A stretch of 61,830 nt of DNA from Chromatiales bacterium (GCA_026982555.1 JALSGT010000084.1:1-61830), one strand, 5' to 3'. Counted from the stretch's first letter, positions 4,329 to 24,905 are shown. Notes: generated by a model not told the origin, from the letters alone. A program made the numbers and translations.

Positions 4329-5828
4329 ATGAAAGCCTTATGCCTGGAAGAACAGTTTCAATTTCTGGATGCGCTTCCTGAAACCCTGTTTGACCGGGTA
4401 GTGACACTGGCATATGGCAACCTGCAAGAGCGGGTTCGCGGCATTCTCTTTTGGCGGGAGAATCTTTTACACGGTTTTCTGCCACCGGTTAATGATATTT
4501 TCTGGCCGGAGCCGGATATGGCAAAAATCATCCACCAACGTCTTCATGCGGTTGATTTATTACCCTTTTGTCGTGACGAAGAAAGCCTGGTTGACCAGAT
4601 ACTACAAGACATCTGTACAGCCATTGAAAGTATCTTGCAACAACGGCTACATAACACTGAAAGTTTGTTTGACGACATCCTCGCACAACAACCCTCCCAA
4701 AATGACCTCCATTCCCGGCAGCCGGAAAACGACACACTTAACGACAACCCGTCCACAAACACAGAAAATACACCGTCTGCAAACCCGTCTGCGAACAGTG
4801 AATTTAACAGCCTGACAGATATTGGTGAAAACCTCGAACAACAATGGATAAAATTATTGTTTCAATGGAAAGAAACCCGCGAAATTTTCAGCAGCATGGG
4901 AACTCGCCCAGGACGGGGCTGGGATCTTTCCAAAGGTATCCTGGCCACCGCAGGCTGGCGTGACTTTATCGCTTATCGAAAACTGATTCGCGACCATCCG
5001 CAACTTAAAAAAGTCATCAGTATCCTTGGACAAAAACAGCAAACCGTTTCAGCATACAAACGGTCCCGCATAACATCAGACAACACGTTAATAGCCGAAG
5101 AAAAACCGATAAAAATTAAATCGCCCTTATCAACGCAAGGCGTGACCCGGAGTGGCGATATTGCCCGCATGCTGCCACAAGAAGCCGCCTTTCTCGGTCA
5201 TCCAAAACTGCACATGCTATGGCACGTACGTCGTGCAGAAAATGCATTACTCAGCTATCAGGTAGAAGGGGTATTGTCAGATCATCAGCCAGACATACCG
5301 ACATCGGAAAAAAACCACCCGTATTCATCGTCCTCCGGCACAAGGAAAAAAGGCCCCATCATCCTCTGTATCGATACCTCAGGTTCCATGCACGGAGAGC
5401 CAGAACAACTCGCTAAAGCAATTTGCCTGGAAGTTATCCGCCAGGCCGCCCGTTTGGGACAACCTTGTTTATTATTTGCATTCAGTGGTCCCGGACAACT
5501 GCTGGAACAGTCTTTATCATTTGACCAAGATGGCCTGAGAGCCATTATTCGTTTTCTGCAACAAACATTCCATGGCGGGACAGATATTCGCGAACCCTTT
5601 GCCCGGGCTTTGGAAAAAATTACAGAACGCCATTGGCAGCATGCTGATATTTTATTGGTCAGTGATGGCCGGTTTCCCGTACCGGAACACCTGACCACAA
5701 AACTGGCTGATGCCCAAAAACGGGAAGGCCTGCGTGTTTTCGGAATAACCGTTGGCCACTGGTCCTCCTCCTCGATGGAGGCCGTTTGTCAAATGGTATA
5801 CCGTGTGAATACAAAGGTTTCGGTCTGA
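4329..5828 (+). CDS. viaA: VWA-domain protein ViaA-like
   Basis: MIDAS CIDTSGSM, FHGGTD, LVSDG and SGDIARMLPQE; lies directly downstream of the RavA-like ATPase. Confidence 0.85.
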   Translation: MKALCLEEQFQFLDALPETLFDRVVTLAYGNLQERVRGILFWRENLLHGFLPPVNDIFWPEPDMAKIIHQRLHAVDLLPFCRDEESLVDQILQDICTAIESILQQRLHNTESLFDDILAQQPSQNDLHSRQPENDTLNDNPSTNTENTPSANPSANSEFNSLTDIGENLEQQWIKLLFQWKETREIFSSMGTRPGRGWDLSKGILATAGWRDFIAYRKLIRDHPQLKKVISILGQKQQTVSAYKRSRITSDNTLIAEEKPIKIKSPLSTQGVTRSGDIARMLPQEAAFLGHPKLHMLWHVRRAENALLSYQVEGVLSDHQPDIPTSEKNHPYSSSSGTRKKGPIILCIDTSGSMHGEPEQLAKAICLEVIRQAARLGQPCLLFAFSGPGQLLEQSLSFDQDGLRAIIRFLQQTFHGGTDIREPFARALEKITERHWQHADILLVSDGRFPVPEHLTTKLADAQKREGLRVFGITVGHWSSSSMEAVCQMVYRVNTKVSV

Positions 5829-5848
5829 GCTGTGATATTCATGTCTAT

Positions 5849-5941
5849 TATCATGGAATGAGAAAGTCCGGTGCGGACAAGGAGGGTTCAGTCCTGAGCC
5901 GCAAGGCGAGGCTAAAGCCTCGCTTCCGCGCCCGGCTCAGG
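5849..5941. repeat. Non-autonomous copy of the RAYT left end with a GAGGCTAAAGCCTC REP hairpin
   Basis: 5849-5890 is identical to 46188-46229 (42 nt). 5890-5928 matches 46254-46292 with a few substitutions. An outer stem CCTGAGCCG/CGGCTCAGG lies at 5893-5901/5933-5941. Confidence 0.8.
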
Positions 5942-7901
5942 CTTTGCCTTGTAGCTGAAGTATGATGGCTTCATTTTCCAGGGTGGAGGTATCCTGAGTG
6001 ATTTCCTCACCGGCGGCGATGGTGCGTAACAGACGGCGCATGATTTTGCCGGAACGGGTTTTGGGCAGGTTGTCAGAAAAACGCATGTCATCAGGTTTGG
6101 CGATGGGGCCAATCTGTTTGGCAACCCAGTCGCGCAGTTCGGCGGTCAGTGCTTTGTCGATGCCGTCTGCCGGGCGTTCACCCCGCAGTACCACGAAGGC
6201 AAAAATGCTTTCACCTTTCACGTCATGGGGACGACCGACCACGGCCGCTTCGGCAACTTTAGGGTGGGCCACCAGTGCGGACTCTACTTCCATAGTGCCG
6301 AGACGATGACCGGAGACGTTGAGCACGTCGTCGATGCGGCCCATGATCCAGAAATAACCGTCTTCATCACGGCGGGCATTGTCACCGGCGACATAAAGTT
6401 TGCCATCGAACATTTTCCAGTAGGTGTCGTAATAGCGTTGCTCATCACCCCATACGGTGCGAATCATGGAGGGCCAGGGCTTACGGATGACCAGTATGCC
6501 TCCTTGATTGGGTTCAGTGATGGAGTTGCCTTCGGCATCCACAATGTCTGCGGCGATACCGGGCAGTGGCAGGGTGCAGGAGCCGGGTTTGGTGGCTACG
6601 GCACCGGGCACGGGCGCAAGCATATGTGAGCCGGTTTCAGTCTGCCACCAGGTATCAACGATGGGGCAGCGTTCACCGCCGATAATTTTGTGGTACCACA
6701 TCCAGGCTTCGGGGTTGATGGGTTCACCCACAGTGCCTAACAGGCGGATACTGCTTAGGTCATATTGATTTGGTAAATCATCGCCTGCCTTCATCAGGGC
6801 ACGGATGGCGGTGGGGGCCGTGTAAAAAATCGTGACGTGGTGATCTTCGCAGATTTTCCAGAAACGCCCGGCGTCTGGCACTGTGGGTGCGCCTTCATAC
6901 ATCAGCATGGTGGCACCTGCGGCCAGGGGGCCGAAGGCCACATAAGTATGGCCGGTGATCCAGCCCACATCGGCGGTACACCAGAAAATGTCAGTGTCGT
7001 TAATGTCGAATACCCATTTCATGCTGGTAATGGCATTCAGCAGGTAGCCGCCGGAGGAGTGCTGGACACCTTTGGGTTTGCCGGTGGAGCCCGAGGTGTA
7101 AAGCAGAAACAGGGGATGCTCACTGCCCACCCATTCCGGTTCGCAGGTGGATTCCTGGCCTTCAATCAATTCATGCCACCAGATATCACGGGAGTCAGTG
7201 AAGTTGATATCATGGCCGGTGCGTTTCAGTACGATGACTTTTTCAGTGCTGGCGCATCCGCTGTTGAGTGCTTCATCCGTTGCGGATTTCAGTTCGACAA
7301 TTTTGCCACCCCGGTGGGCGCCATCGGCGGTAATAACCACTTTTGCACCGGCGTTCTCGATACGGTCTTTCAATGATTCTGCCGAGAAGCCACCGAACAC
7401 CACAGAATGTGTGGCACCGATGCGTGCGCAGGCCTGCATGGCCACTACGGCTTCGGGGGTCATGGGCATGTACAGAATCACCCGGTCGCCAAGACCAACG
7501 CCCAGTGATTTCAGGCCATTGGCGAACTGGCAGACATCGCGGTGCAGCTCTGAGTAGCTGATGTGCCGGGCGTCACCTTTTTCACCCTCAAATACGATGG
7601 CCGTTTTGTCGCCACGCTCGGCCAGGTGGCGATCCAGGCAGTTGTACGACACATTGAGTTTGCCATCGCTGAACCATTGATAATGGGGTGCATTACTTTC
7701 ATCCAGCACGGAAGTGAACGGTGTTTGCCAGTCCAGTTCATTACGAGCCAGTTCGGCCCAGAAACCTTCGTGATCGGCTTCGGCTTTGGCGCGCAAGGCA
7801 TCCAGTTCAGCGCGGTTTTTAATGCGTGCCTTGCTGGAAAACTCAGCGGAGGGGGCAAACAGACGATTTTCTTGCAGGGTGGATTGGATATTTTCTTCCA
7901 T
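5937..7901 (-). CDS. acs: Acetyl-CoA synthetase
   Basis: [42 protein letters not shown]. Start placed at MEENIQ (7901) behind a GGAGA RBS. Confidence 0.97.
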
Positions 7902-8065
7902 GGTGTCTCCCAGGTTTTGCGGGCAAAAATCAGTCTGGGTACAGCGGATTTTTGCACAAAATGATACTAACGAGTTCTTGTCGCATATTAACAGGGCGGC
8001 GGTGGGTGTGCATCTGTATTGGGCATGCATGAGAGGTAGGGGACATAGCCGTCAGGCTAAGCCGG

Positions 8066-8192
8066 GTAGGGTGGAACAAGCGCAGCGGTTCCAGCAAGCG
8101 GGAAAAGAACATCAAGGTTTGCCGGTGGACATAGAGGCTATTGTTGTTTCTTATCGCCTATTGGTGGAACCGCTGCGCTTGTTCCACCCTAC
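8066..8192. repeat. GTAG-family REP doublet (REPIN)
   Basis: GTAGGGTGGAACAAGCGCAGCGGTTCCAGCAA (8066-8097) and its inverted copy (8161-8192), 31/32 identical. Confidence 0.85.
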
Positions 8193-8567
8193 CGTTTTAC
8201 TCTGTATTGAAGAAAGTCGAATAAAAAGCCGGTAATACTCCAGTCTCACCCTCTTTCCGGGTAGAGCTTAGCCTGACGGTTATGTGGGGGGATTCAGATG
8301 TCATTTTTTTTGCATTTTTTGTCTAACATAACTTCATTTGTATTTTTCGCGTCAATCTTTGTGTTCTGCATCAAGTATGAGCGACGGGTTGGCAATATCC
8401 GTATTTCTCATGGGTGAAAAAACGGGTATTGGAATCCGCACAAAGGCAGGTCGGCGTTTGGGGAGGTTAATTTTAGTATTTATGAAATGTGAGAAACTTC
8501 ACAGGTTCAGATTACGTTGAGGGGAGAGGGGGGAATATTATTGACGATATTACCCAGGAGATAAGAC

Positions 8568-13646: not shown

Positions 13647-15725
13647 TTGAATGGACTTTATAATATGAGTTGGCAGAACCCTGCTTGTTGTAAAATACAA
13701 TTTTTTAAATGTGCAGCTTCAATTTTATTTCTGTTTTTTGTTTTGCCATCTGTAGGGTTTGGCTCAGGTGTCAGTATAGCGACTGACAGTACCGGCATTG
13801 CCACATCAGGCGGGCAGGTATCGATTAGTCTGGAAGAGCTTGGGTATGAAGAGGGTATTCATTTTGCGAATACTGAAATCGGTCATGAAGCAAAGCTGGC
13901 TTACGCTATTCCACATGATACAAAAGTATCTTCTGCAAGTATTCATCTCCGTTACAACGTTTCATCGTTGCTGGGCCAGCGTTCAAATATCCTGCTGCTG
14001 GCGAATGGTCACCCGCTTAAGCAGGTGCAGTTGACGGACGAGCAATACCGCCGTGATCTCAAGGTCGATATTCCTGTCAATTTAATACAACCGGGTACTT
14101 TGAATATCACTGTCAAAGTAACCTTGCTCACCACAAATGATCGTTATCCGGATGCGCGTACCAGTGGTGCTTTACTGCATATTGAGGCGGATTCAACACT
14201 CACCATTGGCTATCAGGACACGATTGCCTCACTGCGCGATGCCTGGATACTGTTACCCGGGAAGGTCGTTTTGACAATACCGGACAGACCTTTTTCTGAA
14301 GACGAATTTAATGCTGTCTGGGGGATCATGGATCATCTGTATCGCCAGGGGAAAAATATTGTTATTACGCATTATCCTGAGATCGGTCATATCGTCATCG
14401 GGGATAGATCAAACCTGAAGAAGCGGTTGCTGCTGGAGTTGCAGTCAGCACAGCCGGAGCAGGAACCCCCGGACTTGTTGCAAACCCTTGATGATGACAA
14501 CACGATTATGTTGCTGAGCAGCCCGTTGCGCAGTGTTATTTCTATTACCCGGCCTGCTGAGACATCAGCTTCGGCATTGATGAACACCACCTGGCAAAAA
14601 CTGGTGGCAGGACGCCAGTATAAAATGCTGACAACCGGTTCCGGTGAAAAATTTACCGCTTCTGATGATGGCATGCATGAGATACGACTTGCCGATTTTG
14701 GTATGGACACATCAACCCGTTACGTCTGGGCCAACACGGAATGGAATCTGTTACTGGACCCTTTCAGAATGCCTGCGGGTACACGCCCGGCGGTATTGTT
14801 TTTGGATCTGATGGTGCCGCCGCCGTCCAATACGGCAGCATTCAGTTTATATACCTATTTGAATGATATCATGGTGTATGCACAACATCTGGATGGCCGT
14901 GATGGTGTGCAGCGCCTTCAAATTCCGCTACCTGCCAGATATCAGCAATTGTATAATAATTTGCGTATACAAATTATAAATACAGCGTCAGTCAATGGCA
15001 ATTCTGAACAGGGGCTTACCACATTCCCGGTGCAGCTATTGCCAGAAAGCACCTTGGTTCTTGAGCAAAATACCGCGAAACCTGAACGGTTTGTGGATCT
15101 TCCGGCCTATCTTGCCGAACAATTTGATATTTACCTGCCTTCGGCTTATCTCGACAGCCCGGAACAGTCATTGCGCTTTACCGCTGCTTTTACCGCAAAC
15201 TTCCCGGTACCTTTTGCTGAGCGTAAAGCCATTTTTGTCAAGCCAGGCAATACCCTTACTCCTGCACGCCCGTTTATTGCATTGGGCGATGTTGCATTTT
15301 CAGAACTGGATGCGCCCGTTGATTTTGAGCAGGGTGTTATTGAGGTCAAGGATAGAAAAGGCGAGTCTTTATTAAAGGTGAATGAGTTATCGGGCATTGC
15401 CATTGCACAGCTTGTGACCAGCCATGGTCAACACGGACTGTGGTTACGTTCCGGTGACAGTGACCCTTATCCAGATATACGCAGGTTGTTTCTCAATGAA
15501 GATGATGTTGCTTTTGCGGACCGCAATGGTTTGCTGTTCAGCCTGAACAGTACAGAGCCTACTTTGGCCAGAGTGCATTACCCGTCAACTCGTAACTGGC
15601 TGGCGGCCATTAGTGAATATCGTTTTTGGATTATGGTTTTTGTATGGCTGACTCTGGTGCTGGGTATTGTTTATCTGTTCAGACGCCAACGTCAACAGCA
15701 GAGCAATAACCGTCAGTCTGTGTGA
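13647..15725 (+). CDS. BcsB-like periplasmic polysaccharide copolymerase subunit
   Basis: N-terminal hydrophobic leader; ISLEELGY...IP...ASIHLRY...S.LL...SNILLLANG pattern repeated in a second domain (YLNDIMV); single C-terminal TM followed by basic residues. Confidence 0.7.
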   Translation: MNGLYNMSWQNPACCKIQFFKCAASILFLFFVLPSVGFGSGVSIATDSTGIATSGGQVSISLEELGYEEGIHFANTEIGHEAKLAYAIPHDTKVSSASIHLRYNVSSLLGQRSNILLLANGHPLKQVQLTDEQYRRDLKVDIPVNLIQPGTLNITVKVTLLTTNDRYPDARTSGALLHIEADSTLTIGYQDTIASLRDAWILLPGKVVLTIPDRPFSEDEFNAVWGIMDHLYRQGKNIVITHYPEIGHIVIGDRSNLKKRLLLELQSAQPEQEPPDLLQTLDDDNTIMLLSSPLRSVISITRPAETSASALMNTTWQKLVAGRQYKMLTTGSGEKFTASDDGMHEIRLADFGMDTSTRYVWANTEWNLLLDPFRMPAGTRPAVLFLDLMVPPPSNTAAFSLYTYLNDIMVYAQHLDGRDGVQRLQIPLPARYQQLYNNLRIQIINTASVNGNSEQGLTTFPVQLLPESTLVLEQNTAKPERFVDLPAYLAEQFDIYLPSAYLDSPEQSLRFTAAFTANFPVPFAERKAIFVKPGNTLTPARPFIALGDVAFSELDAPVDFEQGVIEVKDRKGESLLKVNELSGIAIAQLVTSHGQHGLWLRSGDSDPYPDIRRLFLNEDDVAFADRNGLLFSLNSTEPTLARVHYPSTRNWLAAISEYRFWIMVFVWLTLVLGIVYLFRRQRQQQSNNRQSV

Positions 15726-15771
15726 GGCGATAAGATCTATGGATGGCTCAACCATTTTTATGAAGGATACG

Positions 15772-17640
15772 ATGAGTGATTCTGCGCCACTTGGAGAGTT
15801 ACTGATTACCCGTGGATTACTTCAGCAAAAGCAGCTGGACACTGCGCTTGATTTGCAAAAAAAATGGGGTACACGTCTGGGCGATATTCTGCTCTCCAAG
15901 GGATGGGTGCGCGCTCAGGATTTTTATCTCACGCTTGCCATTCAGTATCAAAAACCATTTGTTGACCTTTTTAAAGAACGTCCGGATAAAGCGTTATGGC
16001 GAGATGACGAGCTTACCCGTTACACAGAACTGCTCGTGTTGCCTTTACGTAAAATGGACGGAGGGATTCTGTTTGCCGTGGCCGACCCGACACCAGCGGT
16101 GTTTGAGTATATGGATGAGCATAGTGATGGTTTGTATGATTATGTCATAACCTCCAAGTTTGACATTATATGGTCAGCGCAAAACGAGGCAGACCATCAT
16201 TTCAGTGACCGGGCCGTGAATGAGCTTGCCCGGCAGCAGCCAGTGAATTCCGCCGGACAGGTTTTTACCCGCGCACAACTGTTCTGGATATTTGGTGTGT
16301 TGTCGGTGCTTATTGTATCCGCCACATTCTGGCCCATTGCGACCCTGGTTCTGGCCAATGTTTTTATCAGCCTTTTTATGCTGTTGAATTTTGGTTTGCG
16401 TATGTTGTTCGCATGGGTCGGCAGCCATGCAAACATTGATGTCAAGGTCACGGATGAAGAAGTCCGTGCGATCAATGATCGTGACCTGCCTTTTTATACG
16501 GTGCTTGTCCCCATGTACAAAGAGCCCAGCGTATTGCCAATTATTACCGAATCATTGCGCAATATTGACTATCCACTTTCAAAGCTGGATATCAAGCTGA
16601 TCCTTGAAGAGGACGACGAGGAAACCATTGCTGCGGCCAAAAATCTTGACCTGGAAAGTATGTTCGAGATTATTCGTGTGCCGGTTTCGTTGCCTAAAAC
16701 CAAGCCCAAAGCCTGCAATTATGCACTGAGTTTCGCACGCGGCGAACTGGTGACGATTTATGATGCCGAGGACAAGCCGGAACGTGATCAGTTAAAGAAA
16801 GCGGTTATTGCTTTTCGCAAAGCGCCGGAGAATACGGCGGTCATCCAGGCGCGTCTTAACTATTTTAACGCCAATGAAAACTGGCTCACACGGATGTTCA
16901 CGCTGGAGTATTCCCTCTGGTTTGATTTTTATCTGCCTGCACTTGAGGCATTGAAAATACCGATACCTCTGGGAGGCACCTCGAACCATTTCAAGCTGCG
17001 GATTCTAAAAAAGGTTAATGCATGGGACCCTTATAATGTCACGGAAGATGCTGATCTGGGCGTCCGCCTGACGCAGCTGAATTACCATGTGGGTGTGGTT
17101 AACTCAACAACTTATGAAGAGGCCACGAACCGGTTTGGTAACTGGATCAGACAGCGTTCACGCTGGATCAAGGGTTATATGCAAACGTACCTGGTGCATA
17201 TGCGTCATCCTGTGCGCTTGTATCGGTCACTGGGGCATGTCGGCTTTTGGGGTTTCCAGTTTTTCATCGGTGGCGCTGTTCTCAGCTGTCTGTTGGCTCC
17301 GCTCCTTTATTTAACGTATTTCGGCTGGCTGTATACCCAGACCCATGTGCTGGATGTCATTTTCCCCTCTATTATTCTGTATGCCAGCCTGTTCAGCCTG
17401 TTGCTGGGTAACGGGTTATTAATCTACCTGTCAACATTATGCGTCTTCAAACGTCATTTGTATCACCTCATACCCTGGGCGCTGACAGTGCCTGTTTACT
17501 GGCTGATGATGTCAATTGCGGCCTATAAAGCGCTTTGGCAGCTTATTCATAAACCGTTCTACTGGGAAAAAACCACGCATGGCTTGACTAATTTTTTGCA
17601 TGTTGATCCGCGTGAGAAAAAAGACCAGGCCGACGTATGA
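15772..17640 (+). CDS. Processive GT2 glycosyltransferase with N-terminal MshEN (c-di-GMP-binding) domain
   Basis: PLGELLITRGLL...ALDLQKKWGTRLGDILLSKGWV (tandem MshEN motif), KPKACNYAL, IYDAED (DxD), TEDADLG, QRSRW; TM helices flank the catalytic domain. Confidence 0.85.
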   Translation: MSDSAPLGELLITRGLLQQKQLDTALDLQKKWGTRLGDILLSKGWVRAQDFYLTLAIQYQKPFVDLFKERPDKALWRDDELTRYTELLVLPLRKMDGGILFAVADPTPAVFEYMDEHSDGLYDYVITSKFDIIWSAQNEADHHFSDRAVNELARQQPVNSAGQVFTRAQLFWIFGVLSVLIVSATFWPIATLVLANVFISLFMLLNFGLRMLFAWVGSHANIDVKVTDEEVRAINDRDLPFYTVLVPMYKEPSVLPIITESLRNIDYPLSKLDIKLILEEDDEETIAAAKNLDLESMFEIIRVPVSLPKTKPKACNYALSFARGELVTIYDAEDKPERDQLKKAVIAFRKAPENTAVIQARLNYFNANENWLTRMFTLEYSLWFDFYLPALEALKIPIPLGGTSNHFKLRILKKVNAWDPYNVTEDADLGVRLTQLNYHVGVVNSTTYEEATNRFGNWIRQRSRWIKGYMQTYLVHMRHPVRLYRSLGHVGFWGFQFFIGGAVLSCLLAPLLYLTYFGWLYTQTHVLDVIFPSIILYASLFSLLLGNGLLIYLSTLCVFKRHLYHLIPWALTVPVYWLMMSIAAYKALWQLIHKPFYWEKTTHGLTNFLHVDPREKKDQADV

Positions 17641-19124
17641 AAGTGAATCGACAGAGAGCGGACTTTGCCTGGCTGTTGTTGTTCGGGGTTTTGTTGACCG
17701 GTTTTTGTGTCTGGTTGACAGGAAACAACTTCAGCCATGAAATGGCACTGCGGGACTGGGTAAAGGTGCTGGGTGTTCTGGATGCAGATCCATTCCGCCT
17801 TGAGAATCTTGGTCTGGATACACCGCATCTGCCTTTGTATTTATTGATGCCCTTTGCCTGGTTGTCGCCAGATGCGCAAGGTGTGGCACCGTATCTCTTG
17901 TCCAGTTTATTGATTGCACTATTGTTGACGGTCTGGAATCACCAATTGCGTCATCAGGAATTTGCATTGTGGCAACGTTTCCTGCTGCTCATGCTGGTGT
18001 TGTTTCAGGCGCCTCTGTTATGGGCCGCCACGACGGGTGGACATATTGCGCTTACCCTTCTGATTTTTTATTTCGTATATCTGGCCTGCTTGCGGATGAA
18101 TTTTCAGGCGGATCTACGTTCTTTTATTATGCTGGGTCTGTTATTGGGCCTGTTATTTTTTGTTGATGCTGTGGCGTTGTTTATTTTTATTGCCCTGTTT
18201 CCTTTTTTCGCATTAATTGCACCACGGCGTATTTTTCTGGAAGCGCCTTTGAGTGTTTATATTGTTATCTGTATTCCACTGGGTGTGGCTGTGTTGACAT
18301 GGGCGTATCTCGGTTGGGTTTTTGAAGGTGGGCCAGGTCATTTTATTCGTCAACCCGGTTCCACATTTCTCGGAGCCTGGCAGCATGCTGCGGATTCACC
18401 CTGGCTGATTCAGTATGGCGGCCAATGGTTTGCACCGCTGGCTGCGGCGTTTATGCTGCTGCTGGTTTATTTTCCCATTGTGTTTTTATTGCTGGCACTG
18501 GCCGCGAAACACAAGGATCACCTGAAAGTCAGTCTGGCATTGATGTCAGTTCCGCTGATTGCCATCGCCTTTGCGACCAGTAAATTTTATCTTGAACGTC
18601 CCGTTGAACTATTGGCACTGGTCATGGTGGCGGTTATGGCAGAACTGAGTATTATCCGGACTCGAAAAGGCTGGACGTTCCCGGCGGTTGTACTGCTGCT
18701 GATTGCGGGGGGCGCATCTGGCTGGCACAATTTTCTGCAAACGCCGGACCCCGTCGTACGTGATTGGCAAAATGCGCTTTTTGCCCGTTTAAATAATACG
18801 CATACAGCAGATGTTGCACTGGGACAGTTTCTGTTTCGTCAGCAGGGTGAGGTACTTATCGATGATTTTAGCGCCTATCGTGTTATTGCTGCTTATGGCA
18901 ATACAGAAAAAATGGCATTGCCCAAGTCAGACTTGTTCAAGTTACAGGTTCGCAGGCAGGTACCGGATATCGACTATATTGTCGTGCCGGATCCGCGTGT
19001 AGGCCAAGGTGACTGGGACCGTATCAATAAACATTTTCCTGACCTGTATCGCTCTGGAATGAAAGACTATCAGCAGGTTTATGATTATCAGGGCTGGCGG
19101 GTATTCAAACATGTTGATGGTTGA
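17637..19124 (+). CDS. Polytopic membrane protein, GT-C (ArnT/PMT-like) candidate
   Basis: About 11-12 hydrophobic segments, an acidic first periplasmic loop (DADP...DTPH), and a soluble C-terminal domain; overlaps the GT2 stop. Confidence 0.5.
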   Translation: MKVNRQRADFAWLLLFGVLLTGFCVWLTGNNFSHEMALRDWVKVLGVLDADPFRLENLGLDTPHLPLYLLMPFAWLSPDAQGVAPYLLSSLLIALLLTVWNHQLRHQEFALWQRFLLLMLVLFQAPLLWAATTGGHIALTLLIFYFVYLACLRMNFQADLRSFIMLGLLLGLLFFVDAVALFIFIALFPFFALIAPRRIFLEAPLSVYIVICIPLGVAVLTWAYLGWVFEGGPGHFIRQPGSTFLGAWQHAADSPWLIQYGGQWFAPLAAAFMLLLVYFPIVFLLLALAAKHKDHLKVSLALMSVPLIAIAFATSKFYLERPVELLALVMVAVMAELSIIRTRKGWTFPAVVLLLIAGGASGWHNFLQTPDPVVRDWQNALFARLNNTHTADVALGQFLFRQQGEVLIDDFSAYRVIAAYGNTEKMALPKSDLFKLQVRRQVPDIDYIVVPDPRVGQGDWDRINKHFPDLYRSGMKDYQQVYDYQGWRVFKHVDG

Positions 19125-20175
19125 TAAATTGCGCAATCTGCTGCCGTTATGGGCTTGTATGTTGCTGTTAATCACTCAGAGTGCTGATGCAAGCTGTTCG
19201 GCGCCCATCCTGCACGGATTCAATTTTCTACAGGACAGGCAGACTGCGCTGGACTCACCAAAGGTTTGCCAGTCGCTTCAGAAACTTCATCGAACCGGTG
19301 CCAACTCTGTTGCTTTTATCCCTTTTATGAAACAGGAGAGCCCGCAAACAACGAACCTGTTTTTGGCTGACAATGTATCTGATGAGGAACTGATTGCAGG
19401 AATACGTGAAGCAAAACGCCAGGGTCTGCATGTTGTTGTCAAGCCTCAATTGCTGGTCAGCGGCTCCTGGGCTGGCCGGATTAAACTGGCGACAGATGCG
19501 GATGAGCAAATCTGGTTCACACGGTATATTGCACATTTAGCCCACTATGCCAGGATCGCGGAAACCAACAAAGTGGATGCTTTTGTAGTGGGCACCGAGA
19601 TGAAGCGGTTGAGAAAGAGCAAATACTGGCCCGATGTTATTAAAGCCATACGCCGCCATTTCAGCGGGCACATTACCTATGCTGCGCATGGCGTAGACGG
19701 TGTTATTGCATTTCCATACTGGGATTTACTGGACAGTGTCGGCGTTACATTGTACCCGGTGTTCCCGGAAAAAGCCGATGCCGGTCAAGTGCGAGAGGTG
19801 ATTACGCAGCGCATTAACAAGCTGGGAGAAACCATCCGCAAGCAAAAGGGCAAAACCGCCTGGATACTTGAAATCGGTATACCATCGGCTGAAGGCTGGG
19901 AACGATATCCCTGGGACTGGCGGAAATTACGTGAGGAAAAACCACGGGCCGATAACCAAATGCAAGTTGTCATTATGCAGGAGTGGTTGATGTCCATGGA
20001 CAGACCATGGATTGAAGGTGTCTGGATATGGAAATGGAAAAGTTCACCGCAAGCCGGAGGCACAGAAGATCCGGGTTATACGGTACAAAATAAACCGGCG
20101 CAAGGGGTGATTCAGGCAGCCTGGCAGTGTGCCACGTCAATTCCGGATCATGGACAGGATTTATGCAAGGATTAG
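19111..20175 (+). CDS. Exported TIM-barrel glycoside hydrolase, GH113-like
   Basis: Signal peptide (...SADA), GANSVAF, VVVKPQL, FVVGTEM (putative acid/base Glu), TYAAH, ILEIG (putative nucleophile Glu), GVWIWKW. Confidence 0.7.
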   Translation: MLMVDKLRNLLPLWACMLLLITQSADASCSAPILHGFNFLQDRQTALDSPKVCQSLQKLHRTGANSVAFIPFMKQESPQTTNLFLADNVSDEELIAGIREAKRQGLHVVVKPQLLVSGSWAGRIKLATDADEQIWFTRYIAHLAHYARIAETNKVDAFVVGTEMKRLRKSKYWPDVIKAIRRHFSGHITYAAHGVDGVIAFPYWDLLDSVGVTLYPVFPEKADAGQVREVITQRINKLGETIRKQKGKTAWILEIGIPSAEGWERYPWDWRKLREEKPRADNQMQVVIMQEWLMSMDRPWIEGVWIWKWKSSPQAGGTEDPGYTVQNKPAQGVIQAAWQCATSIPDHGQDLCKD

Positions 20176-21008
20176 TTTGTTCAACCTATTTTAAACAGCT
20201 GCTGTTTGGTGTGGCCATGTTGACATGTGCAACCATTGTGCAGGCTGCCAGCCCCTGGATGCGCTCTGAAGCAGAGCGGTTTTACTGGGCGGGTGTTACG
20301 TATTCAACAGGGGATCAGCGCTGGGACGACAAGAGTAACCAGAAAAAGGTGGACTGTCGAAACAGTGACTGGTACATGCACCAAAAAATCGAATACGGGT
20401 ATAGCTATTATTACACCCTGATTGCAGGATTAAGTGCCGCCTCTGCCAATTGTGGTGATGACAGCCTGACCGGCGTGGGAGACCTGACTCTGGGTATTCG
20501 GGGGCGACTGGACAAGTATCGCAATGGTAAAAGCTGGGAGATTACCACCATTATCCCGACGGGCTATGAGCGCGATAATTCATCGCGTCCGGGTAACGGT
20601 CGGTTTGGTCTCGAAGCGGGTGTCGCCTGGTTATTCAAAGAGGAAGAGAGGGAACTGGTCAATTCCTGGTCCTGGCAGGGAGGGGTCGCCATTCGACTTT
20701 GGCAGGGACCCCCTGCGGATCAGTTTCTCAGCTACTTATCGGTACAGCATCGTATTGCTGCTGTTGGCAAAATTGGTATGCGCATCAGCGGTGATTTTTC
20801 CTTTCGCAATGAATCGCCTGAAAAAACAAAATTTGAAAATCGTACCCGCCTGACGGATTTCGATAAAGTAAGAGCCGCAGTCTCATGGTCCAGCCGCATT
20901 AATGCGCGCTGGTCCTGGCAGGCCAATGTTGGTCATGTTCTGTGGGGCAGAAACGTGACTGACAATCTGACTGTTGGTTTAAATATCAGCCATGACTGGA
21001 GCCAGTGA
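20163..21008 (+). CDS. Putative outer-membrane beta-barrel protein
   Basis: Signal peptide (...IVQA), alternating aromatic/hydrophobic strands, C-terminal TVGLNISHDW. Confidence 0.55.
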   Translation: MQGLVCSTYFKQLLFGVAMLTCATIVQAASPWMRSEAERFYWAGVTYSTGDQRWDDKSNQKKVDCRNSDWYMHQKIEYGYSYYYTLIAGLSAASANCGDDSLTGVGDLTLGIRGRLDKYRNGKSWEITTIIPTGYERDNSSRPGNGRFGLEAGVAWLFKEEERELVNSWSWQGGVAIRLWQGPPADQFLSYLSVQHRIAAVGKIGMRISGDFSFRNESPEKTKFENRTRLTDFDKVRAAVSWSSRINARWSWQANVGHVLWGRNVTDNLTVGLNISHDWSQ

Positions 21009-22846
21009 ATCCTGTGAAATTATCCATCGATTTTATTTGCCGCGCTGCCGGGATAGTGATGTTATCCAGAGTGCTTGTATTGTTTTTTCTGAGTATGGCC
21101 GTCCATGCGGATGAGCGCTGGACCACCGAAAAAGCGAGTATGGTTGACAGTATCGAAAAGCAAACCGGTTTATCCCGGACGAGTATTGGCACCTTGCATC
21201 TCAACATGCGACCTATTGATGCTGATGTTCTGTTTCGTAAAGATCCACACGATACATCCTCGTTCGCCGTCAGCATCGTGGATGATGCAGGAGAAATGCT
21301 AAAAGGGCGTATCAAGGTATCGGGCAGTTTCACCCGTCGTTTCCCCAAAAAAAGTATTTTTATAAAACTTGAAAATGGGCAGCAATGGAAAGGCCGGCAA
21401 AAAGTATCCCTCGATGCCATGGCAACCGATGGCTCGATGCAGCGTGAATGGCTTGCCTGGCAACTGGTGCATGCACTGGGGATGCCTGGCCCTGAACTGC
21501 AATACGTGCGCGTCTATATCAACAACCGCTACAGCGGGCTGTTTATGCATACCGAGTGGCTCGATACCGGCGTTCTGGCACGTTACGGACTGGGTGCTGA
21601 CGGACAGTTTTTTCATCCTTCAGACTCACGGTTTTGTGGTGATTTCCTGCCGCATCACAAAAAAACGCTGAAAGACTGCTGGTTTAAACTCTCGCCACGG
21701 GATAAAGACTTTTCACCTTTGCAGGCGCTTATGGATGACATTGCGCAAACACCGGTTAAAGAATTTCATGAATACCTCGAAATGCACTTTGACGTTGATT
21801 CGGTCATTAATTGGCTGGCACTCAATGTGCTCACCAGTAATGGTGATACCTATAATAAAAACTACTTTCTTTATCGGTCGGCGATTACCGGGAAGTGGGT
21901 GGTTATCCCTTGGGATTACGACCTGTCTTTCGGGCGTAACTGGGATGCTTATCTACCTTTTCCCGAAAATATTCTGAATGATAATTTTCAGTATTTTTAT
22001 CCTCCTGAGCTGGGCGCACCCAACCCATTAAAAGAAAAAACATTACGCAACCCGGTGCTCAATCAACTTTTCACTGAACGAATGTTGCACTTGCTTGGTG
22101 AGAAACGACATGGGGCAGCGGCAACTTTTGGCTGGTTCAGCCCGAAAGCCATGCGGGAACGCATTGACCGTACCGCGATCAGATTACAACCTGAACGCAT
22201 TGATGATCCCTATCTTAAAGACAGCGCGATTGATTTTTCGCAAGAAACGGAAAGCCTTTGGCATTACGTGCAGCGACGGCATGCGTATTTACGTGAAATT
22301 TTCACAGGTGCCGTTCCCTGGAACCCGGAGCTGGCAATCTGGAATCCGGCGGATGCACCACCACGCCCGGCATTGAGCGTCAGTTTGTTTGCCAGCCAGC
22401 AGGTCTCCGCTAACGGGCAGTATGCAACAATCGCAGCACCCGCTTATGGGTATCTACTGGCGGCGATAAAACTGAAAGATAATAACGGGGAGGCTGCTAA
22501 ATTCAACGTTGAGTCTGCAATAAATCATACGCCCACTGTTTTTCCACCCGGCTATGATCCGGCATCCTGCATTCAGCGCAGCTGGTTTATTACCTTGCGA
22601 ACACCCTTCAAATCACGCGTCATGGATTTGCAGCTGGATTATTTACAGGAAGACTCACAGCGACAGGAATTGGGAAGCGTTCGTAGTGAACAAAACTTTA
22701 CACTTTGGGTGTTGGATGGCCAGCGTTGGCATAAGCTCAAGACGCATGTCAATCCCTTATCAAATGTAATCAGCACTCAAAATATGACAATCCATCCATC
22801 ACAGATGCTGCGTTTTGTTGCCTGCCCGGAAAGTACAGAAAGTTAA
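21005..22846 (+). CDS. Exported CotH-family atypical kinase
   Basis: Leader ending AVHA; GSFTRRFPKKSIFIKL, REWLAWQL, NGDTYNKNYFLY, PWDYDLSFG; extra C-terminal domain. Confidence 0.85.
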   Translation: MNPVKLSIDFICRAAGIVMLSRVLVLFFLSMAVHADERWTTEKASMVDSIEKQTGLSRTSIGTLHLNMRPIDADVLFRKDPHDTSSFAVSIVDDAGEMLKGRIKVSGSFTRRFPKKSIFIKLENGQQWKGRQKVSLDAMATDGSMQREWLAWQLVHALGMPGPELQYVRVYINNRYSGLFMHTEWLDTGVLARYGLGADGQFFHPSDSRFCGDFLPHHKKTLKDCWFKLSPRDKDFSPLQALMDDIAQTPVKEFHEYLEMHFDVDSVINWLALNVLTSNGDTYNKNYFLYRSAITGKWVVIPWDYDLSFGRNWDAYLPFPENILNDNFQYFYPPELGAPNPLKEKTLRNPVLNQLFTERMLHLLGEKRHGAAATFGWFSPKAMRERIDRTAIRLQPERIDDPYLKDSAIDFSQETESLWHYVQRRHAYLREIFTGAVPWNPELAIWNPADAPPRPALSVSLFASQQVSANGQYATIAAPAYGYLLAAIKLKDNNGEAAKFNVESAINHTPTVFPPGYDPASCIQRSWFITLRTPFKSRVMDLQLDYLQEDSQRQELGSVRSEQNFTLWVLDGQRWHKLKTHVNPLSNVISTQNMTIHPSQMLRFVACPESTES

Positions 22847-24195
22847 TGAAGAATACGATAAAACGGCTGGCTGGCCGTGTGATGTCACTGTCTGCAACGA
22901 TACACAGTGACGAAATCGGCCCAACACTCAAACTGGCGCTGCGGATTTTTCTTATCCTGTTTGCTTATTACCTGCTCAAGCCTGCGCGTGAAGCTTTTAT
23001 CCTCACTGATGGCAGCGCAGAGCTGCGCAGTTATTCCGTGGCTTTGCAGGCATTAGTGCTTTTTATTGTTATTCCGTTATACAGTACGCTCTATAAACGT
23101 GTTACCGGTGAAAAACTTTATAACAGAATCACACTTTTTTTTGTTGTGACATTACTGGGTTTCTGGTTACTTGGTGTTAATGGTCTGGCGATCAGTGTGC
23201 CGTTTTTTATCTGGCTGGGCATCTTCAGTGTCACGCAAGTTGCCCAGTTCTGGGCACTGGTGACGGATTTGCATCATCCCAAATCGGGCAAGCGCCTGTT
23301 TGCAATTATCGGCTTTGGGGGCTCTTTGGGGGCCGTGCTAGGGTCCAGTTTTGCTTCAGAGTTGTTTGCCTACTTCGGCCCCTATAATCTGTTATTGCTG
23401 GCTGCTGCCATTCTTTTGCTCAGCAGTATTGCTGTGCGGGTTAAAGCGACGAATTCGAATGCCTCCACTCAGGCGGCAAAGGCGGTTGACTGGCATGCTA
23501 TGCTGGGTGGTCTGCATCTGGTGATAAAATTACCTTATCTGCGGATTCTGGCCATATTCGTTGTATTACTGAATTGTGTTAATTCAATTGGCGAGTATAT
23601 TTTGGCCAGCATGGTTGTTGATCATTTTTCGGCAATTACCTCCAGTAGTGAACGCGGTATTTTAATTGGTGAATTTTATTCGGACTTCTTTTTCTGGGTG
23701 AATCTGGCCAGTTTGTTATTGCAGTTTTTTATTGTCTCAAGAATTTACCGGTTGATTGGTGTGTCAGGGGCAATATTGTTACTGCCATTGATCACCACGA
23801 TAGGTTATACGCTGATTGCATTTTTTCCTATTTTTGCCGTTGTGCGTATTATCAAGATTATTGAAAACAGCACAGACTACTCGATAACGGCCACCAGTCG
23901 CCATGCACTTTTTCTTCCCGTGTGTACAGACTCAAAATACCTGGGAAAAACCACAATTGACACCTTCTTCTGGCGGCTTGGTGATTTGATTCAGGCCGGG
24001 GTCGTTTTTGCGGGTACTACTTTGCTTAAACTGGAGCTTGGTGCCTTTGCTATGCTCAATGTTTTACTTTCACTATTGTGGCTATGGGTCGGTATACGCA
24101 TAGGGCGGTATTATAAACATTACACACAGCAATCGGCACTCACGGGTCAAGTCGACATGAGCAGGCCCATACTCTCTAAAAAACAGAGCCCTTGA
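22846..24195 (+). CDS. Npt1/TLC-type NTP/NDP exchange transporter (MFS)
   Basis: YYLLKPAREA, KRLFAIIGFGGSLGA, NSTDYS, KTTIDTFFWRLGD; about 12 TM; start overlaps the CotH stop. Confidence 0.8.
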   Translation: MKNTIKRLAGRVMSLSATIHSDEIGPTLKLALRIFLILFAYYLLKPAREAFILTDGSAELRSYSVALQALVLFIVIPLYSTLYKRVTGEKLYNRITLFFVVTLLGFWLLGVNGLAISVPFFIWLGIFSVTQVAQFWALVTDLHHPKSGKRLFAIIGFGGSLGAVLGSSFASELFAYFGPYNLLLLAAAILLLSSIAVRVKATNSNASTQAAKAVDWHAMLGGLHLVIKLPYLRILAIFVVLLNCVNSIGEYILASMVVDHFSAITSSSERGILIGEFYSDFFFWVNLASLLLQFFIVSRIYRLIGVSGAILLLPLITTIGYTLIAFFPIFAVVRIIKIIENSTDYSITATSRHALFLPVCTDSKYLGKTTIDTFFWRLGDLIQAGVVFAGTTLLKLELGAFAMLNVLLSLLWLWVGIRIGRYYKHYTQQSALTGQVDMSRPILSKKQSP

Positions 24196-24419
24196 TAGCC
24201 CGCTTACTTTTATGCGACATGCCTGCAACAACAAGGTGGAATTCTGCATTATGAAGTGCAATGTGAAATTTTGATGATACAATGCGCAAATTCATGCCTT
24301 CAATGTGAATGACCGGCTAAACATGCTGTTCGTGCGTTTTACTGAAAACAGGTGTTTTTAGCACTTAATTCATGTTTCGGGTTAATTTAACCAACTCATA
24401 AATTTGCTGATTGATATCC

Positions 24420-24905
24420 ATGGAAAAAGTTAACGTTTTATTTGTTTGCATGGGCAATATATGTCGCTCGCCGACGGCTGAGGGGGTTTTTACCCGGCAT
24501 GTACAGGAAGCCAGTCTTGCCGATGTTATCAGGATTGATTCAGCGGGTACTCATGCCTACCATATCGGGGAAGCTCCTGATCCGCGTTCGCAGAAAACGG
24601 CGCTGAAGCGCGGTTATGATTTGTCTTCACAAAAGGCACGACGCGCGGTTGCTGAGGACTTTACTACCTTTGATTATATTCTGGCCATGGACAGAGACAA
24701 CCAGCAGGGTTTGCAGGCTATCTGCCCGGTGGGGGCAGAGTACAAATTACATTTGTTTTTAAGCTATGCACCCAACCTTGAATATGATGAGGTGCCGGAC
24801 CCGTACTACGGTGGCCCGATGGGGTTTGAGCGGGTATTAGATATGATTGAAGAGGCTTCAGCAGGTTTGCTTCAGGATATACAACTGCGCTATTTGCAGA
24901 ATTGA
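24420..24905 (+). CDS. ptpA: Low-molecular-weight protein-tyrosine phosphatase
   Basis: VCMGNICRSPTAE P-loop and DPYYG. Confidence 0.93.
   Translation: MEKVNVLFVCMGNICRSPTAEGVFTRHVQEASLADVIRIDSAGTHAYHIGEAPDPRSQKTALKRGYDLSSQKARRAVAEDFTTFDYILAMDRDNQQGLQAICPVGAEYKLHLFLSYAPNLEYDEVPDPYYGGPMGFERVLDMIEEASAGLLQDIQLRYLQN

Follow-up and report, generated by a model that had tools for sequence, protein, structure and literature searches.

We analysed a 61,830-nucleotide stretch of DNA from a Chromatiales bacterium (GCA_026982555.1, JALSGT010000084.1:1-61830), which at its full length is called the window below. The host is an uncultured gammaproteobacterial metagenome-assembled genome (MAG) that is 73% complete. 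The plus strand of the window carries seven tightly packed genes, with neighbours overlapping by 1-59 nt throughout, and a 215-nt gap 3' of the last gene closes this packing. The final two genes encode a CotH protein and a putative membrane carrier related to the NTT/TLC nucleotide translocases. An initial annotation, made from the sequence alone, proposed that CotH is an exported kinase and that the carrier runs outward, releasing ATP and taking up ADP, so as to fuel phosphorylation in the periplasm. The pair comprises the following features:

21005-22846, plus strand: CotH, 613 aa (Pfam CotH PF08757, E = 1.3e-56)
21005-21115, plus strand: signal-peptide-like leader of CotH, residues 1-37, with cleavage predicted from the sequence after VHA
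21311-22291, plus strand: CotH kinase domain, residues 103-429, with catalytic D281, N286, D304 and D306 (PF08757 profile match)
22382-22828, plus strand: C-terminal all-beta domain of CotH, residues 460-608, with the invariant C522 and C607 (secondary structure of the AlphaFold2 (AF2) model)
22844-22848, plus strand: TAATG stop/start overlap of CotH and carrier, with TAA at 22844-22846 and ATG at 22846-22848 having one base in common
22846-24195, plus strand: NTT/TLC-like carrier, 449 aa, 12 helices (Pfam TLC, family profile and AF2 fold)

Both open reading frames and the overlap of the CotH TAA with the downstream ATG are as first annotated. By every test available, the window CotH is predicted to be an intact exported kinase. 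Residues 103-429 match PF08757 over the whole profile (positions 1-322), the protein matches Bacillus cereus CotH (5jd9) at E = 4e-22, and its AF2 model aligns with 5jda/5jd9 at a TM-score of 0.81. The characterised CotH uses ATP, and in the B. subtilis protein D228 is catalytic and D251 binds metal (PMC7821199); these residues correspond to D281 (in NGDTYNKNY) and D304 (in WDYD) of the window protein. D281, N286, D304 and D306 are invariant across 11 aligned orthologues, and the catalytic residues are unchanged over Gammaproteobacteria, Desulfobacterota and a distant lineage whose CotH resembles Sfz6 of the zetaproteobacterial sfz cluster described below. The leader reads ...MLSRVLVLFFLSMAVHA|DE, and a type-I signal peptide or a lipobox (LLGGC, LLASC or FLAC) was found in 10/10 CotH orthologues examined. 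Four cysteines (C211, C225, C522 and C607) are also invariant, which fits disulfides in an exported protein. The all-beta C-terminal domain is retained in the long Sfz6-like proteins, the CotH profile matching at positions 39-593 in distant genomes. The leader and kinase motifs reported in the initial annotation were both borne out and, with export signals in every orthologue examined, none of these proteins is predicted to be cytoplasmic.

The carrier is a distant NTT/TLC relative as judged from family similarity and from its modelled fold. A family profile built from 29 homologues matches NTT1 of C. pneumoniae (E = 1e-19) and of Arabidopsis (AtNTT1; E = 3e-13), in both cases near full length. 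The AF2 model (pLDDT 85.7, pTM 0.85) contains 6+6 helices in an arrangement of the major facilitator superfamily (MFS) type, and Foldseek places NTT1 structures at ranks 1-4 (TM-score 0.61-0.76), followed by generic MFS proteins. More than 870 homologues are present in public data, nearly all of them in free-living bacteria.

The pairing of CotH and carrier is strongly conserved across three lineages, namely Gammaproteobacteria, Desulfobacterota and the lineage with Sfz6-like CotH. A contig scan with the carrier profile returned 80 loci. All nine in which the carrier is at least 49% identical to that of the window have the same gene order, i.e., BcsB-like subunit, family 2 glycosyltransferase (GT2), a conserved protein, GH113 hydrolase, a second conserved protein, CotH and carrier; these loci derive from gammaproteobacterial and Desulfobacterota MAGs. 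CotH and carrier overlap by ATGA in six of these nine orthologous loci and are separated by 3, 8 and 39 nt in the other three, and a stop/start overlap is kept in 7/10 loci checked. We also surveyed 400 species genomes of the host's class, of which six contain an sfz-type CotH; the carrier directly follows it in five of the six, which belong to five different families. One genome has CotH only and one has the carrier only (the latter on a 3.5-kb contig), and the association is significant by Fisher's test (p = 4e-10, uncorrected for phylogeny). Genomes of the same genus and the same family within this sample contain neither gene. The five pairs include that of genome G257, where the carrier following CotH (locus L089, contig C10, 11425-12401) is split between two frames, with an internal stop, at the contig end, reflecting either pseudogenisation or a faulty assembly.

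A phylum-level sample yielded 25 genomes with an Sfz6-like CotH, in frames of 660-2270 aa, a length in agreement with the published Sfz6. In 24 of these, CotH is followed immediately by the carrier gene in the same orientation; in the 25th, CotH sits at a contig edge. The seven-gene order of the window is repeated in loci L135, L136 and L139, and L137, which is cut at a contig end, has the last five genes. The co-occurrence of CotH and carrier to which the initial annotation had looked is therefore found in three lineages, five of six clusters of the class sample and 24 of 25 genomes with Sfz6-like CotH; in the nine loci of the contig scan and in L135, L136 and L139, GT2 is part of the shared gene order.

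We inferred a maximum-likelihood tree of 127 carriers and compared it with the genes that adjoin them. CotH-linked carriers form one group within a 55-member clade that has an SH-aLRT support of 100, and 48 of the 55 members adjoin an exported ATP-using enzyme: CotH, a fusion of a FAM20-like kinase with a phosphatase, or a protein of the pyruvate phosphate dikinase (PPDK) type. The distant Sfz6-linked carriers, once added, stay in this clade, and the approximately unbiased test does not reject monophyly of the CotH-linked carriers as a whole (p = 0.96). The FAM20-like fusion is found in 32 of the 71 other loci of the contig scan, mostly abutting the carrier; it is an exported protein of ~610-660 aa whose metallophosphatase domain matches 2z72 at 3e-49 and whose kinase profile matches FAM20B (2e-8) and FAM20A (3e-6). 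At five more loci, the carrier adjoins an exported protein of ~990 aa with a mobile phosphoenolpyruvate-utiliser domain and a PPDK_N domain (PF01326, 5e-23). A separate and more distant clade of 36 carriers has an aldo/keto reductase for a neighbour: in 20 of 40 loci sampled, all 20 falling within the clade, the reductase gene comes next after that of the carrier, in the same orientation and with a median spacing of 4 nt. This reductase has ~320 aa (PF00248, 2.4e-33) and carries a twin-arginine (Tat) signal in at least 18 of the 20 cases. Judged from their sequences, the one thing that these carrier partners have in common is that they are located outside the cytoplasm and depend on a nucleotide cosubstrate.

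These surveys yielded further observations on the carriers and their neighbours. Examples of the FAM20-like fusion, with a metallophosphatase of the Shewanella type, lie at L017:11613-13475 (minus strand) and L076:11699-13525 (plus strand). In the class sample, a profile of the fusion found the kinase part in one genome only, in a fragmented assembly, and this search was uninformative. Many FAM20-linked carriers bear a C-terminal He_PIG Ig-like extension; we considered whether this could be a periplasmic docking domain, and found the idea unsupported, since an extra hydrophobic helix does not precede the extension. Loci of the PPDK_N type are L013:6871-9843 (minus strand), L021, L061, L062 and L075, with two exported beta-lactamase-like serine hydrolases next. 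The reductase-linked loci L095-L130 are gammaproteobacterial; in L107, for example, the reductase at 7286-8254 directly follows a carrier at 5734-7260. Acidobacterial carriers (L020:5584-7230 on the minus strand, L077:8242-9888 on the plus strand and four others) lie near a conserved, exported 549-aa protein and an Omp85-like protein. By eye, the 549-aa protein seemed to contain a kinase-like HxD...N...DFG pattern, but Pfam, PDB and profile-profile searches gave no support, and we do not assign it to the kinases. Second TLC-like paralogues with C-terminal HEAT repeats adjoin the main carrier at L030:11291-13477 (minus strand), L022, L044, L049, L058 and L077 (acidobacterial).

Comparison with NTT1 at the level of residues bears on which way such a carrier might run. 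Three charged transmembrane residues of AtNTT1 (K155, E245 and E385) were reportedly subjected to mutagenesis by Trentmann and colleagues in 2000. We derived AtNTT1 numbering as that of chain 9j3j plus an offset of 84, with which the letters at these three positions and at K527 all agree. The carrier and NTT1 both have a basic pair in the first transmembrane helix and the motifs FW..A and GK..ID...R.G, and E385 is retained as the invariant E250. A lysine conserved in all characterised ATP/ADP translocators corresponds to AtNTT1 K527 and PamNTT1 K446 (PMC2606016) and is K443 of chain 9j3j, the K in NPLGKSGG. The carrier family reads RLGD-LIQAG at this site, with no lysine and with an invariant D380 that is aligned with K527 or lies beside its deletion, and so the carrier falls outside the ATP/ADP translocator subgroup as defined by that lysine. 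Reconstituted PamNTT1 exchanges nucleotides in both directions; in its K446E variant, the Km of ATP import rises from 8.6 to 552 uM and the Km of ADP import against internal ATP falls from 1401 to 29 uM, and co-transport of inorganic phosphate (Pi) is abolished while ATP export is still present (Trentmann et al., PMC2606016). A carrier for ADP uptake and ATP release would be expected to behave in this way. The residue changes in the carrier, including loss of the K527 equivalent, would fit a bias towards ADP entry and ATP exit, and they equally allow a changed substrate.

We favour, with confidence somewhat above even, the reading that the carrier is an antiporter of the NTT type which sends ATP outward, takes ADP in and feeds the exported CotH; here we infer the substrate, the direction of flux and the phosphorylated target. 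CotH would be exported to the periplasm and the inner-membrane carrier would supply its nucleotide, with cytoplasmic ATP passing to the periplasm in exchange for the ADP that CotH makes. The inside-negative membrane potential would favour ATP4- leaving against ADP3- entering, provided that no Pi is co-transported. The opposite direction, in which the carrier imports nucleotides or their breakdown products for scavenging or recapture and CotH obtains its donor from elsewhere or is loaded before export, would agree with the description of all characterised NTTs as importers, and the metallophosphatase domain of the FAM20-like partners could free phosphate from substrates. We nevertheless consider import improbable: a free-living bacterium, which generates ATP for itself, can draw on no outside pool of it, the lysine needed for a preference for ATP import is gone, and import would not account for the coupling of such carriers to a kinase exported by Sec or a reductase exported by Tat. 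Recapture, moreover, is already covered by an ATP/ADP antiporter that returns ADP.

Several observations weigh against outward ATP supply. The kinship of the carrier to characterised translocases is remote: its Pfam TLC match scores 36.4 bits against a cut-off of 21 and is confined to residues 18-106, an NCBIfam search of the protein returned no named family, and identity to NTT1 is only 16-19%. Its initial assignment to the Npt/TLC family is upheld by the profile and the fold, both of which are nearest to NTT1, in the weaker sense of a distant relationship with a partial Pfam match. Of the 25 genomes with Sfz6-like CotH, 23 belong to one genus, and these counts are not independent. A close relative, G279, has six genes of the cluster with an intact exported CotH and no carrier, its only TLC-like gene being a distant one elsewhere in the genome; G418 has a second cluster without the carrier. 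Exported CotH lipoproteins also occur in four genomes without any TLC-like gene (G194, G073, G297 and G022). Periplasmic ATP could escape by way of porins, a cost that would demand tight coupling. Outward supply of ATP to a periplasmic kinase, as first proposed, is supported in part, with the partners of the sister carriers and the change of K527 to Asp speaking for it and the two carrier-less clusters and the lipoproteins without a carrier speaking against it. At the G279 locus (L084, contig C35, 9716-11467), CotH is the last gene of the cluster, and a convergent suf operon comes next.

The residues that differ from NTT1 belong with the same objections and also bear on a second explanation, that the carrier is tied to the exported enzyme and moves something other than ATP, e.g., another nucleotide, a metal-nucleotide complex, a nucleotide sugar or another anionic donor, which CotH uses or which serves another assembly step. 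In addition to the loss of K527, E245 is replaced by G125, K155 is replaced by V65 with a conserved R61 one helical turn off, and the SKSTKY motif of NTT1 is ENSTDY in the kinase-linked clade, inverting its charges, and carries RR in the reductase clade. Such changes could just as well point to another substrate. The clade linked to aldo/keto reductases, enzymes that use NAD(P)H rather than ATP, indicates that substrate has evidently diverged within the family, and characterised NTTs already vary in what they carry. NTP/H+ symport and NAD+/ADP exchange are both represented among them. The pairing of cotH with a polyphosphate polymerase in pel loci hints, in turn, that an extracytoplasmic CotH might accept other donors (PMC7112168). 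Set against this, the characterised CotH is a user of ATP (PMC7821199), the CotH, FAM20-like and PPDK_N partners of the immediate clade are all ATP enzymes, and the carrier always follows CotH and not the glycosyltransferase. On balance, we regard another substrate as rather unlikely.

The carrier-less clusters and the exported CotH proteins in genomes without a TLC-like gene would also suit a third explanation, in which CotH is a structural or glycan-binding envelope protein, or is active only outside the cell, and its adjacency to the carrier reflects co-inheritance within an operon. Some CotH-family proteins are indeed surface adhesins, as in Mucorales. This explanation appears very improbable given that every catalytic residue is invariant across three lineages, that the stop/start overlap is retained in 7/10 loci and that the same carrier clade has independently been joined to two more exported ATP-binding families.

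The five genes upstream of CotH place the pair in a wider context:

13647-15725, plus strand: BcsB-like periplasmic synthase subunit (Sfz1-like), operon gene 1 (Pfam BcsB, E = 1e-16, N-terminal part only)
15667-17640, plus strand: GT2 glycan synthase with an N-terminal MshEN-type cyclic di-GMP (c-di-GMP) motif (Sfz2-like; Pfam Glyco_trans_2_3, 4e-22; NCBIfam NF053729, 9.5e-16)
17637-19124, plus strand: 495-aa conserved protein at the Sfz3 position (its place in the order is kept across related clusters)
19081-20175, plus strand: GH113-family glycoside hydrolase at the Sfz4 position (Pfam GH113, 8.9e-44)
20127-21008, plus strand: 293-aa conserved protein at the Sfz5 position, predicted to be exported (signal peptide in the L084 orthologue)

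The BcsB-like gene occupies the first position in every related cluster, and the TGA of the 293-aa gene overlaps the GTG start of CotH (read GTGA). Neither the 495-aa nor the 293-aa protein gave a match in Pfam or NCBIfam. From this gene content, the operon is predicted to be a c-di-GMP-controlled, synthase-type exopolysaccharide operon, and it is the gammaproteobacterial counterpart of the zetaproteobacterial sfz cluster. The GT2 synthase resembles NfrB, but its c-di-GMP domain sits at the opposite end. Downstream of the operon, at 24411-24905, lies a gene for a low-molecular-weight phosphotyrosine phosphatase that is Wzb-like; we rejected it as a member of the unit, given the 215-nt gap before it and its absence from all related clusters. 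Promoter and terminator scans gave signals no higher than background.

Within such an operon, CotH may phosphorylate the nascent polymer, or an envelope assembly protein, between the BcsB-like/GT2 synthase and the outer membrane; the choice of target, glycan or protein, is purely conjectural. The polymer itself possibly contains mannose, because a GH113 gene is present and a phosphomannose isomerase gene lies near the zetaproteobacterial cluster. If the favoured reading is true, it would account for the activity of secreted kinases of the CotH and FAM20-like types in bacteria and would supply a route by which exopolysaccharides or matrix proteins, the iron-binding stalks of Zetaproteobacteria among them, could become phosphorylated. 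The textbook view of the periplasm as free of ATP shapes the understanding of envelope chaperones, proteases, ligases and transport; an ATP/ADP antiporter that feeds exported kinases would overturn this view for many environmental bacteria. Among NTT-type proteins, the carrier would then be the first that exports ATP, and it would be a natural equivalent of the PamNTT1 K446E variant.

A broader generalisation can be put forward more tentatively, and we hold it to be possible without thinking it probable. Bacterial NTT/TLC-like carriers may be general exporters of nucleotide cosubstrates, delivering ATP for CotH, FAM20-like and PPDK-type enzymes and possibly NAD(P)H for the Tat-exported reductases, in which case the importers of parasites and plastids would be derived forms, reversed in part by the gain of a single lysine. 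Were this so, the Gram-negative periplasm would have an energised kinase enzymology comparable to that of the lumen of the endoplasmic reticulum (ER) and Golgi.

Among described systems, the closest to the window operon is the sfz cluster, which is involved in stalk formation in Zetaproteobacteria (Koeksoy et al., 2021, PMC8250860). The gene order is the same, with a BcsB-like Sfz1, an 'EpsE-like'-GT2 Sfz2, Sfz3, a glycoside hydrolase Sfz4, Sfz5, the CotH protein Sfz6 and an 'ATP-ADP antiporter'. The region of Sfz2 that corresponds to an MshEN-type domain was read there as an 'EpsE-like T2SS domain', and the antiporter was listed as a neighbour only, with no link to CotH proposed; neither sfz6 nor the antiporter cassette is present in the Betaproteobacteria that form stalks (PMC8250860). 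At 613 aa, the window CotH is without the long SH3-containing N-terminal part of Sfz6, and the host of the window cluster is a gammaproteobacterial MAG instead of a zetaproteobacterium. Gram-positive pel loci offer a second parallel, in the form of an accessory cassette of cotH, a polyphosphate polymerase and DUF4956 (Whitfield et al., 2020, PMC7112168). Here too, CotH accompanies a synthase-dependent exopolysaccharide locus and a membrane system that possibly delivers a phosphoryl donor; the partner, however, is a VTC-like polyphosphate polymerase instead of an NTT-like carrier, and there is no outer membrane.

The carrier itself finds its closest profile and fold relatives in NTT1/Tlc of Chlamydiales, Rickettsiales and plastids (Transporter Classification 2.A.12; PF03219; 9j3n, 9j3o, 9j3l and 9j3m). 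The hosts of NTT1 are energy parasites or organelles, whereas the host of the carrier is free-living and its gene is coupled to that of an exported kinase. The net direction proposed, ATP out, also differs from the import performed by NTT1, and NTT antiport is reversible in vitro (PMC2606016). Our searches of the literature on ATP in the periplasm, on kinases secreted by bacteria and on ATP/ADP antiporters turned up no suggestion that an NTT protein exports ATP to periplasmic kinases. The mitochondrial ADP/ATP carrier (SLC25) has been called the only known ATP exporter (2026 preprint). Like the route proposed here, it moves ATP out of an energy-producing compartment in exchange for ADP, but it has an unrelated six-helix fold.

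The Fam20 kinases of the eukaryotic secretory pathway are related to CotH, act topologically outside the cytosol and rely on an ATP carrier of the ER/Golgi membrane. The carrier that supplies the lumen with ATP is a member of a different transporter family, and the periplasm, unlike the ER/Golgi lumen, is bounded by an outer membrane that contains porins. The likeness extends to substrate and gene neighbourhood, in that FAM20B phosphorylates a glycan and bacterial FAM20-like proteins adjoin sisters of the carrier described here.

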